A stretch of DNA of 52,293 bases. It comes from a virus (Duplodnaviria; Heunggongvirae; Uroviricota; Caudoviricetes; Ackermannviridae). Position 1 is the first letter of the stretch. Each line of letters begins with the position of its first letter. The position numbers and the translations under genes are program-made. Below the pieces are notes generated by a model. That model was not told the origin of the DNA. It worked only from the letters and a program-made list of their open reading frames with translations, and ran no database searches. This document shows, in pieces, positions 14,224-25,200 of the stretch. The stretch covers positions 104,721-157,013 of IMG/VR virus record IMGVR_UViG_2974499353_000001; one strand, given 5' to 3'.

Positions 14224-14250
14224 AAAACCCCCGCCGAAGCGGGGTTTTTA
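14224..14250 (-). terminator. Intrinsic terminator after TSP1
   Basis: CCCCGC-TTCG-GCGGGG followed by a T run. Confidence 0.8.
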
Positions 14251-16564
14251 CTATGATCCTATAATATTATAGGTTAGAGAAGTATTACCATCAACTGGAT
14301 CAGCATCTATTCCTGTCGGTCTTGACGCTGTCTTAACCATGACACCAGCGATAGTTTGTCCAGCTGTTGCACCTACATACTTAGAACAATTTACAGAATA
14401 GAATAATTGCCTGTATTCAATATTACCCTGAATCTCACTTAGTACAACATAGGCCGCACCAGAATCCACTGGGCAGTTAGTATGTATGTTTACTTTTTCC
14501 GTGGTGGAGACTCTAAACATATGGCCGCCATCTGTAGATATACCAGCAAGCCCAATTAATGATAATGTCCCACCGGTTTTGATAAGGAAGCTACTACCAG
14601 AATTTGCCTTCAAGCTACCAGTACCTTCAAAATTAACCATCGGCAACTCCGTGTTAGAGGTAATGGCTATCTCACCTGGGTTAAGATAAACTCTTTTGCA
14701 CTTGAATAGCTGGCATAACTTTGAAATATTAAGTAGCTCTCTTATAGGTTTGGTTCCGTTAAATCCCCAGTTGTAGTTATTACCATTTACAGGATCTATG
14801 TATAGAGTGTCTGCTTTTACACCAACAACATCTTTGATATAGAAAATGTCACCAACTTCCCCAAATTGGAATTGACTTCCCATATTTGTACAGTCGAGTA
14901 CCAATGTAGGGTAGTTACCAGTACCTCTAACGAGTTTTAAACCACCTACTGGCATTTGTCCTCTGACAACATTTCGAGCAGTTTCTGGGCAGTTTTTAAG
15001 GAAGTACATACTATCTAGATCAGGGTCTTGTCCGGAAAGACCTACCCCTGACAACGTAACATCTGAACTGGTATTGATCAGGTAGAAACTATGTTTTTTC
15101 TTCCCACCAGATGATTCAATGTGGGGTTTATCAACCATAAATAAACCGTAGGAATCAGTATCCCGGCCAGCGTGAACAAAGTCGAATGATGCTTGTTCGA
15201 TGATTGGGCTATTAAACTTAACCTCTGAACCTGCAAACTGAGTGATGGCAACATCACCTACCTCAGTAAACCCTGCTGGTTTATACACCGCTTGTTCTAG
15301 CTCACCATTGGTATTACCAAGGCGGGAAATGTAAGCATTGTTTACAGTAGCACCGCCATTAGAGTCAATGAACACTGCGCCCTGAGTTTTATACAGGATG
15401 CGTAGATTTTCATGAACAGAACCCCATGATGCTGACTGCAACAATCCTACTCTTGGCAGTCTTGCTGTTGTAATATCGCTCCCTGTATTCTCCCCAATAG
15501 ATAACCCTTTTGTAGTGCAACCTGCCCCACCTATCCATTTAACACCAACCTTTACACCTGGTGCTGTAATCAGGTTAAGGTTACTAATATCAATTTTTCT
15601 GGCACATGTTACAGCGTACCCATTATCAATATCTAACCCAGTAGGATAATAATCTACATCTTTATTGAGTTTGTATGAACCATCGGGTTGTTTACGGTAC
15701 ACCATTAAGCTGATTGCTGCTGTATTCTTATCTACTGGGTCATAAAACAATCCTTGCTTACACTCACGAGTAAAAAAGTTTGGTGCTGGCATTTCAATTG
15801 AAACACCTGGGGGTATGTATAGCGTCTCTGTGAAACGGTATAACTTGGTCAGGTTAATTTTTACTGCTACTTTCTCCATGTACGAGTTTACAGCCGCAGC
15901 ATCAGGAAGTGTTTCAGGAACGTTGTTTATGTCTGAAAGCATTTCTTTTAATTTTGAAGTATCGTCAGCTATTCCGTCGCCTACCGCATTGTACTGTTCA
16001 GGTGTGCGTACAGTTAATACATTATTTAGCGTCCCGTGCGGATGAACTCCAATCAACGAGCCATTGCCGTTTGCCAGTTGTGTTCTCAAAGAAGCATCAC
16101 CAACACTAACCCACGCGCCAAGACCAATACCACCAGTTGATGCAGGAGTTGAACCGGCAGGGACAGCTTTAGGTAATGCTCCATCCCAGCGATACTTACC
16201 ATCTGTATAAGTGAGTAATTCATTTTTAACGTTAAGCGTAGAACCAGAATCAAACGAACCAGGTAAGGTTACGTATTCTTCACGAGATACAGCTAATGCG
16301 CCTAAGTCTACAGAACCTGCTGAATGTACAAGTACAGCAGCAGTATTAAGACTGACGGCAGTAGTACCAGAAGCAATACCAGCAGGTAAGGAATAAGCTC
16401 TTTGCGTTTCCTTGTCATAGATAACTTTATACCCCCCCTAAATCTACACCAACCGAAAAGTAAACAATCTCAGATTGCTTAACCCCAAAGTGTCTAGCTA
16501 CTGCTTGTTTGTTGGTTAGGATTCCAGTTGAACCCTTACCACCTTGACTAAACATCTCGTTCAT
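14251..16564 (-). pseudogene. tsp1: Tailspike TSP1 (CBA120 TSP1-like), frameshifted by one extra G
   Basis: ATG 16564 MNEMFSQGGKG...VDLGG then stop TAA; G7 run at 16432-16438; removing one G gives an open 770-aa frame continuing YKVIYDKETQRAYSLP into ORF 14251-16089. Confidence 0.9.
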
Positions 16565-16615
16565 ACATACCTCTTTGTTTTTCTAGTAAGCCCCTCCTAA
16601 GAGGGGTGTATTTTT

Positions 16616-19381
16616 TTAAATAGAAGAATCCAATATACGGTAACTAATTAACTTAGTAGGGTCTACCGGATTAATCAGATTGTAGTATCGTGAGGCTACA
16701 TAATCGTTCTCGGAAGAGAACATACCAACATACACTTTAGCGCCCACCCCAGAACAAGCATCCCCACCAGCATTGCTATCTGAGAAGAACGTTAATGGGG
16801 AAGTTAATCCGAATATAGAATTAAATGGTACGGCTAAATAAGCGCCTCGGAATGACCGTCTGATTCTCTTACCCGTCTGAATATTAAGAATACTCCACCA
16901 GAAATATCCTGGTTTAGCACCAATAGCTATATGATATGGTACACCACTTTGTAGTTTAAGGTCGTTAGGTAAATCCCCAGATAAAATTTGGGTTGTACCA
17001 TCGCCCCCCAATAGCAAAGCAATTGTTTGTTTTCCAGAAGCGTCTATAACTAATTGAAGATGAAGACTGTTGGATGTATCACTAAACCCTGAACCAATGG
17101 CCATGAAGTTAAATACTTCAGCTCCAGATATGGTGGGTACTACAACAGCAGCCATGGTAATACCTTCTGGACCTGCTGTTCTTGAATACAGTAATTTATC
17201 TTTGTTGGCTTGTGATAGTCTCAGACCATTTACTTGCCCTACAGAAGATGGGACACTTACATAAACAGGTGTAGTGCTAACACCATCAAATGTAGGGGTC
17301 TCGTTCATGGTTTGCAAACCAGTCTTGGAATAATTAACCAATCCGTTAATGCTCAGGTCGGAATTGGTGGGGTTGATAATATTGTTATCACCAATAAAGT
17401 TAATGCCCATATAACCAGTCTCAACCACACCATTAATGGTGACACTACAATCATTAGACAGGAACTGAAAATTGCCTGCACTAGAGTTAGCACCTGAACC
17501 ACTATTCGCGGCATAATTGAGTCCTACGAATCCGTTGATAACTGCATCACTTTTGTTAAATACGATGTTGTAGAAAGTGTTGTTAGCATTGATGCCGTTA
17601 CGATTGGTGTTCAATCCGTTCATGGAAATTGAATATGAATCGCTAATCTCAATGCCATTCCCGCCACAATCTTGTACCTCAATACCATTAATAACCATAT
17701 TCTGGCTGTTATTAATAGTAATGCCTGGGAACTGTCCTACTGTACCATAAGGTTGCCAGTTAGCCCAAATGAATTTACCGCCAATAATACGACCATTACC
17801 ACAACCATCAAGAACCAGACATTGTTTACCGCAGGTATTAACCTGGATATTTGTCCAAGTCCAATCAGTAGTAGCACAACGGACACCCACCTGATTGATG
17901 TGGTTGACTAAAAGAGAATCTGTAGTAACACTAAAGTTACCACTATCAATATTTAACCCATATTCATCAAAACCTGCTATATGGACTTTAGAAATACACA
18001 AGTCGCGTCTTGGGTCTGCGGTAGTGTGGAACGGATAATCGGCTGAGAGACCTGAAGGAGTTTCTACATAGATACCTGTTGTGCCCGCAGTAAATGACGT
18101 GCCTTGTTGTGCACCTGTGCCATATACCCCAAAGGCGTCTAATACAATAAGGGAGCATGTATCTTTTATGGTAATACAATTCCCAGTAGCAGAAGGCAAC
18201 TGATGCAACCTTGAGTAATGTAATCCAGACCCATAAATAGACGACGTATTATATTTTAACTGGATATTGCTAACGTAATGTGCATCAGTTAATTGTGTGG
18301 CCTTACCACTATCCACACAAGATTGTACTGGAATAGTATCATCATTAGAACCACCCAAAGCACCAAACATGAATGGGTTAACTCTATCAGCATTAACACG
18401 TAACCATGCCGCGCCGCCAACAGTTTTGATCACAGTACCGTTATTATCAGTCTTTCCTGTACCATCAATTAACGCACGGAATACCCCTCCACCAAGAAGA
18501 GTACCCGCAGTGTGTTGCTTAAGAATAATGCGTTGTCCATCCATAGTGGGTTCAGTATTCCTGAGATCAGCAACAGAATGGCATTCTCCAATATACTTGG
18601 CACCATCATTGCGCCCCAGAGTGTTTATCACATTAATAAATGAATCTTCTAAAGGCAACAAATCAACCTGCACATCACCTGGGTTGTAATTCAATTTCCC
18701 AGCAGATACAGAAGAAATGACAGAACCATCAGGAATGGTTGGTAAACCATAACTGGTTTGCGTCGCTATATCATAAACAACTTTCTTCCCATCCAACAAA
18801 GATATGGTGTCCGTACTAACGATGACTTCAGAGTCTTTTACATTAGCAGAACGGGCGATTTCTTGAATACTTCGGTCAAACGCCGGACTGATATTCGGTT
18901 GTTTAACAGACATTTCAGCGACTACCCAAACGCCTGCAGTCAGTGCAGTTTGCAAAGATACTTTTCCTGTCGTGCTGTCATAGGAATATTCAATTTCGGG
19001 GGTTTTGTACTCGCCACCGATATAAAGAGATTGGACTCCATAAGATGTGAAATCAGGAGTGAACTCGGTTTCACCTCCTACGGCCTGAAATTTGTATATG
19101 CGGATACCTTTGGCTGTATCTTCTGGCGAAAGAATTTTATCGAATAAGCAATACACAACATCGCCTTTGGACAATGCGCGCCCGAGATTCAACGTATTTC
19201 CTTCGATTTCAAAGTTGTCTAAGGGAACTTGCATACCACCGTTGATTGTGACTACGCCAGTGACAGGATAGAACGGCAAGGAAAGGAAAGTTTCTCCACC
19301 GACATTTGATTTATACGTGAAAGGAATCTGGTGGGGAGCTGTGACTACGCCGCCGAATAATTCTTCTACATTTCTGGTCAT
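16616..19381 (-). CDS. tsp2: Tailspike TSP2 (921 aa), CBA120 TSP2-like (recalled O157 specificity)
   Basis: MTRNVEELFGG N-terminus, beta-helix body; sequence matches recalled CBA120 TSP2. Confidence 0.9.
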   Translation of the reverse strand: MTRNVEELFGGVVTAPHQIPFTYKSNVGGETFLSLPFYPVTGVVTINGGMQVPLDNFEIEGNTLNLGRALSKGDVVYCLFDKILSPEDTAKGIRIYKFQAVGGETEFTPDFTSYGVQSLYIGGEYKTPEIEYSYDSTTGKVSLQTALTAGVWVVAEMSVKQPNISPAFDRSIQEIARSANVKDSEVIVSTDTISLLDGKKVVYDIATQTSYGLPTIPDGSVISSVSAGKLNYNPGDVQVDLLPLEDSFINVINTLGRNDGAKYIGECHSVADLRNTEPTMDGQRIILKQHTAGTLLGGGVFRALIDGTGKTDNNGTVIKTVGGAAWLRVNADRVNPFMFGALGGSNDDTIPVQSCVDSGKATQLTDAHYVSNIQLKYNTSSIYGSGLHYSRLHQLPSATGNCITIKDTCSLIVLDAFGVYGTGAQQGTSFTAGTTGIYVETPSGLSADYPFHTTADPRRDLCISKVHIAGFDEYGLNIDSGNFSVTTDSLLVNHINQVGVRCATTDWTWTNIQVNTCGKQCLVLDGCGNGRIIGGKFIWANWQPYGTVGQFPGITINNSQNMVINGIEVQDCGGNGIEISDSYSISMNGLNTNRNGINANNTFYNIVFNKSDAVINGFVGLNYAANSGSGANSSAGNFQFLSNDCSVTINGVVETGYMGINFIGDNNIINPTNSDLSINGLVNYSKTGLQTMNETPTFDGVSTTPVYVSVPSSVGQVNGLRLSQANKDKLLYSRTAGPEGITMAAVVVPTISGAEVFNFMAIGSGFSDTSNSLHLQLVIDASGKQTIALLLGGDGTTQILSGDLPNDLKLQSGVPYHIAIGAKPGYFWWSILNIQTGKRIRRSFRGAYLAVPFNSIFGLTSPLTFFSDSNAGGDACSGVGAKVYVGMFSSENDYVASRYYNLINPVDPTKLISYRILDSSI

Positions 19382-21696: not shown

Positions 21697-24600
21697 CTAT
21701 GATGTAAATTTCATTGCATCCCATGTTGTACCATTATGTCGATACCCGAAAATATTTGATGCCCCAGCAATAACATCATATCTGTCACCAGACGCATTAC
21801 CAAAAGGCCTGTCAGGAACAGAAGTTGTGTCAGTTGCTAAAATGCCTTTAAACCACCATCCATTCTGGGTGTTTGGTTTGTATTTGTAAAATTGTTTAAC
21901 ATATGGTTGAGTTGGCGAGTCAACATTAATTTGCCCATGAATACCAGCGTATCCGTATAAAGGTTCACTGGTATTCACATCACTGTATACATCAATGTTG
22001 AAGTAGTAATCCTGTACGGATAGTGGAGCTATCCCAAGCGCTGGATGCATCCATCTATCTGTTTTAATATCAGCAGTGAATTGCACAACACCAACAGTCA
22101 CTCCTGCTGCTTGTTGCAATAAACCCAGGACACCACCAAACTGACATTTTGTCATATTCCATTTAATATGCATTTCATCAAGGTGAACAAGATAATCGTT
22201 GGCAAATTTATTGGTAAACCTTATGGCTGTGTTGTCTGATAATTGAGGTGAACCGTTGGTCCCGCAAGAGACAAAAGAGTCATTGCTGTTGAAAGTAGCA
22301 CCTGTTTTTTGTTTACCCAAGCGAACACACCCCCAAAAACCTGAGAAAGTGTTATTTTCACTAACAACTTCTTTGAAATAGTCCAGGTCATAAGCAACGT
22401 TTGCAGCTTTTTGTTCAGTTGTCCAATCTGCGGCTCTGTTTTTTTGCAATATGTTATTATTTGCAGAGTAAATAATTGCATTAATAGTGGTTGGGTCAGA
22501 TGACAAAACAGACGGCTGCTGTGTTGTGAATGCCGCAGTATTAGGATACCCGATAACTTGCTTTTCTGATCGTAGCGTTACAGTATTACCAATAAATCTG
22601 GCAACAGTTGTAACGTTAGGTACGGTATCCAGAACCAAAGCACTACCTGCGTCCTCACAGACGTTATTTGTGAAGGTGACTATAGATGTCGATGTAGCAC
22701 CGTCGTTAGCCTTCAGGAATGGGTAGCGAGCTTTTTTGGTGATGCATCCATCAACGATCCCATTACCATGACACTCAAATACCGTACACATGTCTGACAT
22801 GGTTGGCTGGATACATTTAACGTTATTTATAACGTAGCCATCGGAATGAATTCTTATTGATGAGTGGTCTATTAGGTTACTGTTTCCAGTCACAGCGTCA
22901 GCAACGCGATAGAAGTTGCAATTCTCTACACGCGTATTGTAGCTGTTGAACGCTGCCTGAGCTTCCTGGAATACCATTACGTTTGCACCAGGAGCATTCT
23001 TGACGTTAACTCCAGAAACAGTCACACCATTACTACCTTCGTAACAAGCTACTGCTGGACAATGAGCTTGTGCTCCAGACCAGTTCAATGGCGGGACAAG
23101 GTTATTGTCACCATTTTCATCAATTAGCATATCGTGGACATATGCGTTCTGAATTTCACGAATACCATCACCGAAAACTACAAAGCCTTTAGTGCCCCCG
23201 TTTTCCTTATTGCGCTCAACAACACCATCGGCAACATACAGTAACGTTGCGTCGCCATCGCCGATGAAAGTAACGTTGTTGCGAAGAAAAATCATAACTT
23301 CCTGATTACGATAAATAGTCAGACCATGCGCCGTGCCTTCCACAAGAGTCGTTTTATCCAACAGATAAGTGCCAGCAGGAACCATGACAACTTGCTGGGA
23401 TCCGAATAGTTCCGCACGTTTCTCCGCATGATAACCTGCGAGGTTTATAGCATCGACCGCGTCTACACCGATCTTATCTGCGATAGAATAGTTGTTATCA
23501 GCACCCCAGTTTGTAACAGACTGCCAATCATAATCTGTTAAATATCCAACACAGTAAAAATCGGGATAGTCTGGAACAGTTCCCGGCGCTACTGTATAAC
23601 CACCACTTTGTATAGCACCATATTTAACCCAGAAAAGACCACTTGAATCAACAAGAGCTTGCTCGTTGGTGGTTAAAACTGAACCTTGCAAGAAAGACCC
23701 AAACTTCTCGAATTTACTATTGATATAATTATTAGCTACCCACTGGCGGGCAGTGGCATCACCAACACTCAACCACGCTCCCGAACCTACACCACCAGTT
23801 GTCGCTGGTGTTGAGCCAGCAGCTACAGTTTTAGGAAGTGTACCATCCCAACGATACTTTCCATCAGTATGGGTGAGTAATTCATTTTTAGTATTGATGA
23901 CAGCACCAGAATCAAATGTCCCAGCCAAGGTAACATATTCTTCACGAGATACAGCTAATGCGCCCAGATCAACACTACCAGCAGAATGTACAAGCACAGC
24001 CGAAGAACTAAGGCTGACTGCCGTGGTTCCAGTCGGTAACTCTGGAATAAAATATGATCTCTGTGTTATTTTATCGTAGATAACTTTATACCCGCTTAAC
24101 ACAGCACCAACACTAAAATAAACGACCTCTGTATCTTTAACATTGGTTACACGAGCCACTTCCCGCAAAGTATAATCAATTTGATTATAGATGTTTGGCG
24201 TTCCATTGATAATTACAACAACTTCATCCTCTGCATCCAGTTCTTGCGCAAGAGTGATTTTACTGGTTAATGGATCGAATGTGAACCCCAGATTTTTATA
24301 CTGGCGACTTCCGTTTATATCAATGGCCGGAACATCATCAACAACGACGTCTAACGTGATTTCGGTTTCACCGCCAATCGCTGAACCCCCATTATAGACC
24401 CAAGTAATCGTAGAAGAACTAGAATCACCGCCATTACCCAATTGAATAGGAGTATATTCAATCACCTGAAGTTCTGTGCTGGCTGGCAAAGAAGGACTGA
24501 AAGTGATTACATTCCCATCTAGTGAATATTTGGATTCCGCAAGACGTTTTCCGTCAGCATACACGTCCACGATTGTTGGTGGAGTATTGAGAGTGACAGC

Positions 24601-25200
24601 ACTTGTTTCAGACGCCAAAATTTGTGTAAAGATTTCACGACTGTAGACACGGCCTTGGCCAAGACCGACGCCGGATGTGATAACCCAACCTTGTTCAGGT
24701 CCAGACCAAGTGAACGTTGCTGATACGTTATCAGTTGTTATAGCCATGTCTTCAGTGGAGCCATACAAATTATTTCCAGAAGGAGACACGGTCAATGGGT
24801 AAGTGGCAAATTTCCCATAAGCATCACAAATAGTAACGGAATCCCCAATACGCGTAGGGGGAGGGAGAACCACTGTAGATGCCCCTGTGGTATTATTAAT
24901 GAGATAGCCACGACCTTCTAACAAATTGCTAGAGGGAGCGTGAGGGAGCGTTTCCCAGCGTATTCCACCACCCCCCAAAGACAACCAACCACCGTTTTCG
25001 TAATAACCTTCAAATTCATCACTATCAGGATTGTAACGCACAGAAGATGGAAGACCTGTAACTTCAGTATCTTCAGGAAATGTCATTACGGCACCAGGGG
25101 AATGCTCAATAGTGCCGGAGTTGTTGAAGCCTTTTATGTTCGAAGACTCAGAAGTTTCTAAACCCAAAGGGAAAAGAGGCTGTGTTGGTTTGTTGGCCAT
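21697..25200 (-). CDS. tsp4: Tailspike TSP4 (1167 aa), baseplate-anchoring hub spike
   Basis: MANKPTQPLFPLGLE anchor, Gly linker, XD domains, shared TD domains, C-terminal beta-helix. Confidence 0.9.
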   Translation of the reverse strand: MANKPTQPLFPLGLETSESSNIKGFNNSGTIEHSPGAVMTFPEDTEVTGLPSSVRYNPDSDEFEGYYENGGWLSLGGGGIRWETLPHAPSSNLLEGRGYLINNTTGASTVVLPPPTRIGDSVTICDAYGKFATYPLTVSPSGNNLYGSTEDMAITTDNVSATFTWSGPEQGWVITSGVGLGQGRVYSREIFTQILASETSAVTLNTPPTIVDVYADGKRLAESKYSLDGNVITFSPSLPASTELQVIEYTPIQLGNGGDSSSSTITWVYNGGSAIGGETEITLDVVVDDVPAIDINGSRQYKNLGFTFDPLTSKITLAQELDAEDEVVVIINGTPNIYNQIDYTLREVARVTNVKDTEVVYFSVGAVLSGYKVIYDKITQRSYFIPELPTGTTAVSLSSSAVLVHSAGSVDLGALAVSREEYVTLAGTFDSGAVINTKNELLTHTDGKYRWDGTLPKTVAAGSTPATTGGVGSGAWLSVGDATARQWVANNYINSKFEKFGSFLQGSVLTTNEQALVDSSGLFWVKYGAIQSGGYTVAPGTVPDYPDFYCVGYLTDYDWQSVTNWGADNNYSIADKIGVDAVDAINLAGYHAEKRAELFGSQQVVMVPAGTYLLDKTTLVEGTAHGLTIYRNQEVMIFLRNNVTFIGDGDATLLYVADGVVERNKENGGTKGFVVFGDGIREIQNAYVHDMLIDENGDNNLVPPLNWSGAQAHCPAVACYEGSNGVTVSGVNVKNAPGANVMVFQEAQAAFNSYNTRVENCNFYRVADAVTGNSNLIDHSSIRIHSDGYVINNVKCIQPTMSDMCTVFECHGNGIVDGCITKKARYPFLKANDGATSTSIVTFTNNVCEDAGSALVLDTVPNVTTVARFIGNTVTLRSEKQVIGYPNTAAFTTQQPSVLSSDPTTINAIIYSANNNILQKNRAADWTTEQKAANVAYDLDYFKEVVSENNTFSGFWGCVRLGKQKTGATFNSNDSFVSCGTNGSPQLSDNTAIRFTNKFANDYLVHLDEMHIKWNMTKCQFGGVLGLLQQAAGVTVGVVQFTADIKTDRWMHPALGIAPLSVQDYYFNIDVYSDVNTSEPLYGYAGIHGQINVDSPTQPYVKQFYKYKPNTQNGWWFKGILATDTTSVPDRPFGNASGDRYDVIAGASNIFGYRHNGTTWDAMKFTS

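Follow-up and report, generated by a model that had tools for sequence, protein, structure and literature searches.

The tailspike cluster and its interrupted gene

The stretch of DNA analysed here (the window, 52,293 nt) is the last third (104721-157013) of the 157,013-bp genome of a Kuttervirus (Ackermannviridae), a Salmonella/E. coli phage. Its closest public relatives are the Kuttervirus phages S8, GG32, STP07, Se_EM3 and CBA120. The minus strand carries four tailspike genes arranged head to tail (Table 1). ORF order and the annotation of S8, CBA120 and GG32 put the TSP1 slot last in a TSP4-TSP3-TSP2-TSP1 series, adjoining vriC, and a vriC-like gene is the next after TSP1 in the window. 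The GAGG Shine-Dalgarno (SD) sequence before the TSP1 ATG is conserved in all aligned relatives. A GC-rich hairpin between the TSP2 stop and this SD (16590-16607) is terminator-like on the plus (antisense) strand only, the coding strand having no T tail.

Table 1. Features of the tailspike cluster (window coordinates).
Feature	Position	Strand	Remarks
TSP4	25200-21697	-	
G6 run in TSP4	24971..24976	-	codons 75-77, TTG GGG GGT; in frame; control
TSP3	21593-19497	-	
TSP2	19396-16616	-	
G6 run in TSP2	17004..17009	-	codons 796-797, TTG GGG GGC; in frame in all relatives read; control
Shine-Dalgarno GAGG	16570..16573	-	5 nt upstream of TSP1 ATG
TSP1	16564-14251	-	homologue of CBA120 orf210
TSP1 5' stub	16427..16564	-	45 codons + TAA; first 44 TD1 docking-domain residues, then Val-stop
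G7 homopolymer (C7 on plus strand)	16432..16438	-	TSP1 codons 43-45; in-frame G6 of nearest relatives plus one G
TSP1 remainder, +1 frame	14251..16437	-	728 open codons + stop; rest of TD1, TD2, beta-helix, C-terminal domain
Terminator-like GC hairpin with T tail	14229..14244	-	directly past TSP1 stop

TSP1 is split between two frames at a run of seven G residues, where the coding strand reads ...GAT TTA GGGGGGG TAT AAA... Frame 0, from the ATG at 16564, yields 45 residues ending in VDLGGV before a TAA, and the frame entered at 16437 (GGYKVIY...) runs on through 728 codons before its stop at 14251-14253. The parts sum to 770 aa (42 + 728) with no further stop or indel. An earlier, sequence-only reading of this DNA had claimed just this, that G7 gives GGV-stop and G6 gives GGYKVIY and an otherwise intact 770-aa spike, and translation of both frames confirms it. 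Its identification of the gene as TSP1 with a single lesion is likewise borne out, by a match to the CBA120 structure and by the open remainder of the frame. The equivalent codons of two paralogues are free of a run, as it had said: TSP3 has LSGFK (CTC AGC GGA TTT AAA) and TSP4 has LSGYK (TTA AGC GGG TAT AAA).

Residues 1-44 are 100% identical to S8 TSP1, and the downstream frame shares 99.6% of its amino acids with S8 and lies one residue apart from an intact 770-aa protein (P0009) in a large protein collection. A phmmer search aligns residues 1-727 of this frame with residues 43-769 of CBA120 TSP1 (PDB 4OJ5; E = 0), and the frame contains Pfam PF18668, Tail_spike_N, the N-terminal TSP1/Gp66 head (TD) domain (E = 1e-25); identity of TSP1 to the protein P0018 is 93%. 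The beta-helix O:21 depolymerase domain is encoded beyond the break. In homology, head domain and gene position the gene conforms to subtype TSP1-1, but in place of an uninterrupted ORF of ~770 aa it has a stop after codon 45. As a normal SD precedes the ATG, the 45-residue stub is expected to be translated.

Spike modules in other phages

The spike genes of these phages vary in larger ways as well. The window's TSP4 (1167 aa) matches S8 TSP4 (1036 aa) over residues 1-486 only (97%) and differs in its receptor-binding part, apparently through a spike-module swap between otherwise close phages; Se_EM3 seems to carry the same long TSP4, across the origin of its record. The docking module, which takes up the first ~560 nt of TSP1, is 85-94% identical in nucleotides in phages of unrelated families: the 72-kb As2, FSL SP-076, SP154 and S5; UTK0001 (Schitoviridae); PD06, nieznany and tuntematon (Stephanstirmvirinae); and ZCKP1. 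This similarity indicates that the docking module has probably been exchanged recently between families. Products of the TSP1 slot can be short: that of SJ3 is annotated at ~185 aa (KJ174318.1 98607-99164) and that of PD06 at 102 aa (MH816848.1 67274-67582), both head-domain stubs with no receptor-binding part, and degeneration of this slot appears to be frequent among sequenced phages. On a 159,312-bp contig the same TSP1-1 gene seems to be represented only by a call of 345 aa from the C-terminal end (P0019), which suggests a different lesion.

Origin and distribution of the G tract

The run site was aligned in 20 sequences, and blastn with a 200-nt query and span arithmetic was also used. 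The common state at Gly43-Gly44 is GGT GGG, seen in CBA120, EP75, SenALZ1, SJ3, STP55, Se-B and UTK0005 as well as in As2 and the Justusliebigvirus PD06; other orthologues spell the pair AGT GGG, GGT GGT or TCT GGG. GGG GGG is found in a single haplotype of the N-terminal module, that of S8, GG32, STP07, SeHz-1, SF02 and heyday, and an exact 40-mer search agrees. Comparison thus shows that the G6 tract is derived, having arisen by one synonymous GGT-to-GGG change in one haplotype, and that it is not conserved. The sequence-only reading, which had described the equivalent codons as free of a run, is right for paralogues and for most orthologues, but the nearest orthologues have G6.

G7 is restricted to the GGGGGG haplotype and to two members of it, the window and Se_EM3. 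In the blastn comparison all of the best 60 rows except Se_EM3 were one base shorter than the window, and the 11 sampled relatives whose codons interrupt the run are all in frame. Both lengths therefore occur among near-identical genomes (G6 in S8, GG32 and STP07; G7 in the window and Se_EM3), so that the survey of run lengths proposed at the outset did recover the two alleles, though in a tract that most orthologues lack. No G5 or G8 allele was seen among the aligned relatives. A pattern scan for 4-10 nt of filler between the conserved flanks gave one match in IMG/VR (EP75, GGTGGG) and none in JGI metagenomes or GTDB genomes, and a search for other short N-terminal stubs returned contig-end fragments only, with no more GGV-stop alleles.

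A second occurrence in Se_EM3

Se_EM3 carries the same additional G on a different sub-haplotype, that of GG32 and STP07. Its TSP1 equals GG32 TSP1 at all other 2313 nt and lies in an 8.4-kb block of 99.7% identity to that phage, in the first ~8.1 kb of which the run is the sole indel; outside the block the two genomes are 95-98% identical. The window's allele is separated from S8 by three substitutions and the G. On these haplotype backgrounds the window and Se_EM3 appear to represent two independent single-step events. The predicted product in Se_EM3 is the same 45-residue stub, and its depositors annotated only the truncated CDS. In the literature searched no TSP frameshift is mentioned for Kuttervirus, and the Se_EM3 paper does not discuss its own.

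Se_EM3 was sequenced by Illumina MiSeq (2x150, 87x) and assembled with SPAdes (PMC9409062). With data of this kind a homopolymer error is unlikely to reach the consensus; at least one step from G6 to G7 is therefore very probably real. The propagation host was S. Typhimurium ATCC 14028S (PMC9409062), a strain that does not belong to O:21.

Homopolymers and frame-split genes across the genome

Across all 157,013 bp of the genome, the G7 run in TSP1 is the only G/C homopolymer to reach at least 7. Seven G/C runs reach 6 or more; the six of exactly 6 are ~4x fewer than base composition predicts by our own arithmetic. There are no A runs of 7 or more and two T7 runs, one of which (A7 in the coding sense) lies intact at TSP4 codon 919 (window 22439-22445). 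The genome-wide shortage of homopolymers is strong, and three of the seven G/C runs of at least 6 sit in the four tailspike genes. The hexamer GGGGGG spells one of 232 Gly-Gly pairs in long ORFs, that of TSP1, against ~6 expected from GGG usage.

Frame-split genes were sought by a census in which all 654 stop-to-stop S8 ORFs of at least 70 aa were compared with the genome by tblastn. This protein-level census took the place of a genome-wide list of indels against S8, a phage rejected as clonal reference since it is only ~97% identical outside the spike genes. Two of the 654 ORFs were split across adjacent frames. One is TSP1, exactly at the run; the other is a probably spurious, unannotated S8 ORF of 89 codons that falls in two frames at window 30561-30826, in a non-coding tRNA/small-RNA region. 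The assembly contains no other homopolymer-linked frame break, its remaining G6, T6 and T7 runs being in frame. Because the only G/C run of at least 7 is also the site of the only frame-split coding gene in the census, the break is not a matter of chance: the longest slippery run and the sole broken gene coincide.

Probable loss of a dispensable spike by slippage at the run

Could the extra G be an artefact, with the phage truly G6, its TSP1 intact, and the seventh base supplied by sequencing or assembly of the record? No other G/C run in the genome is as long, which makes this the likeliest place for a miscall, and a single base separates it from intact alleles. Miscalling has no other frame-split gene in 157 kb to show, however; the other six G/C runs of 6 and the T7 runs are in frame, and the same change is present in Illumina-sequenced Se_EM3. 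The exact 45-aa stub is found on three contigs (NCBI and a Logan read assembly), which may be re-depositions of one sequence; two NCBI contigs, of which the longer has 157,946 bp, carry a downstream ORF of 612 aa that shares the window's private N766, and a third contig, of 143,249 bp, carries a 563-aa call of the window's TSP1 allele. The control runs are those in TSP2 and TSP4, the spikes that form the scaffold of the branched complex (PMC8432352). Both read G6 in the window, S8, GG32 and Se_EM3, and an unchanged G6 in both G7 genomes is what mutation with selection predicts and blind miscalling does not. We therefore regard a miscall in this record as unlikely, though with a real chance of being right.

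An evolved contingency locus is a second alternative, and the one that the sequence-only reading had put in its title. The G tract would be kept because frequent switching between G6 and G7 turns TSP1 ON and OFF and so diversifies host range; lysates would then be a mix of three- and four-spike virions, the O:21 range would be traded against the cost of TSP1, and mutability itself would be useful. Several observations lean this way. In two lineages the ON and OFF lengths are found on alleles that do not otherwise differ, and the OFF alleles have no secondary lesions. The otherwise avoided GGGGGG persists in ~8 genomes with three different receptor-binding domains, and about two of the eight run-bearing genomes are OFF, implying high flux or selection. 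Against this, the tract is just 6-7 nt long and traces back to a single synonymous substitution. Most orthologues lack it, as do the paralogues TSP3 and TSP4; the aligned relatives show neither G5 nor G8, and the G6 runs conserved in TSP2 and in TSP4 are invariant. Upkeep of the tract across orthologues, a sign of selected mutability, was not found. An evolved switch of this kind is improbable, and the mixed-lysate economy that it entails is a doubtful account of this phage.

A third possibility, that the G7 allele yields useful full-length TSP1 by recoding, is very hard to credit: with six Gs the nearest relatives need no shift at all, every intact homologue is encoded in one frame with no conserved two-frame shift site, and the codon in the A site at the slip position, GUA, is a common one, neither a stop nor rare. 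Recoding would work by +1 slippage of tRNA-Gly on GGG_G, where the tRNA can re-pair perfectly one base forward in the run, or by RNA-polymerase slippage that drops one G; the stop codon stands two codons downstream. The frameshift site of prfB has an internal SD-like stimulator, and the run with its preceding A (AGGGGG...) resembles it, which we take as a lead only. For transcriptional slippage, long A/T runs are better sites than G/C runs of 7, which are poor ones. Recoding could give a trickle of full-length TSP1.

The explanation that fits best, to which we assign a rough probability of 0.55, is a real and recent slipped-strand insertion of one G into an accidental G6 tract, knocking out a dispensable distal spike. 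A synonymous GGT-to-GGG change would first have made Gly43-Gly44 GGG GGG in one haplotype, the step that comparison of relatives supports. The tract may then have slipped from G6 to G7, in Streisinger fashion, while the phage's own T4-type polymerase was copying it. With the seventh G, translation begun at the normal SD and ATG ends after 45 residues, and little or no TSP1 spike would be made or mounted. In the model of Plattner et al., as described in PMC8432352, TD1 (residues 1-96) docks TSP1 onto an XD3 domain of the branched complex; a break at residue 45 falls inside TD1. No ATG, GTG or TTG precedes codon 159 in the downstream frame, and candidate starts from there on have no SD, which is why little or no spike is expected. 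Internal restart was accordingly rejected as a source of functional spike, and its product would be devoid of both docking domains.

Such virions would keep TSP2, TSP3 and TSP4 and lose only O:21 Salmonella specificity, judging from data on CBA120 and S117 (PMC8432352). The O:21 specificity that the sequence-only reading had given for TSP1 is backed by the same source, where it is shown experimentally for the TSP1-1 spikes of these two phages (S. Minnesota/Ruiru). On O:4/O:9 Salmonella or O157 isolation hosts the loss may be neutral or mildly favoured and could thus fix in a stock. Two fixed events in ~8 run-bearing genomes are more than neutral drift would give at ordinary slip rates, so either selection or very frequent slippage has to be invoked. 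G7 could also slip back to G6 and produce rare ON revertants in any lysate, a reversibility that would be a by-product and not a designed switch.

Together, these results make the window's lesion most likely a knock-out of a dispensable spike that is recent, has recurred and may be able to revert. Three readings had been offered from the sequence alone: an ON/OFF slipped-strand switch, selection for loss during propagation, and a homopolymer sequencing error. They are partly supported. The recurrence in Se_EM3 speaks for real loss at a hot spot, and the evolved switch fits less well because the tract is short, stems from one synonymous T-to-G change in one haplotype and is not conserved.

The host range of Ackermannviridae is now predicted from tailspike subtypes read from genomes (PMC8432352), and a spike lost through one base makes such predictions wrong for the window phage and for Se_EM3. 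Growing a stock on a single host can cost it specificities for other hosts, a point of consequence for phage biocontrol and therapy cocktails. Were the reads to prove a mixture of G6 and G7, TSP1 would be the first spike under simple-repeat ON/OFF control in this well-studied phage group.

Comparison with known systems

A close counterpart of the gene itself is CBA120 TSP1 (orf210; PDB 4OJ5, TSP1-1, an O:21 depolymerase), which occupies the same slot with the same TD1/TD2 modules and beta-helix and is 93% identical in amino acids over residues 43-770. It differs in having GGT GGG at Gly43-Gly44 and so no run, whereas the window's ORF is interrupted at codon 45. The mutational step has its counterpart in phage T4, in which homonucleotide runs in rII and e are hot spots of Streisinger slipped-strand frameshifts. 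The likeness lies in a replicase of the T4 family producing indels at runs, since the polymerase of Kuttervirus is T4-like by annotation; the T4 hot spots represent a general mutational mechanism, not a functional system.

Campylobacter phages are reported to have hypermutable polyG tracts that give phase-variable receptor-binding proteins (Sorensen et al. 2021, Cell Rep 35:109214, as cited in PMC10579305 and PMC10877375). As in those phages, the window has a G tract in a host-recognition gene, the length of which decides whether the protein is made; the tract in TSP1, though, is short, derived and not conserved among orthologues.

The nearest parallel to the proposed loss comes from lambda, where 15 of 21 low-adsorption isolates obtained under plaque selection had stf frameshifts, which with one exception fell at short homonucleotide runs, one position being hit four times independently (PMC2762979). 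The selective setting differs, since stf loss lowers adsorption to the same host and is selected for, whereas TSP1 targets an O-antigen other than that of the propagation host, and its loss may or may not bring an advantage. What the window's TSP1 has in common with stf, the frameshift of laboratory lambda included, is its standing as an accessory receptor-binding protein, dispensable on the host at hand and lost, more than once at one and the same site, by single-base indels in a run.
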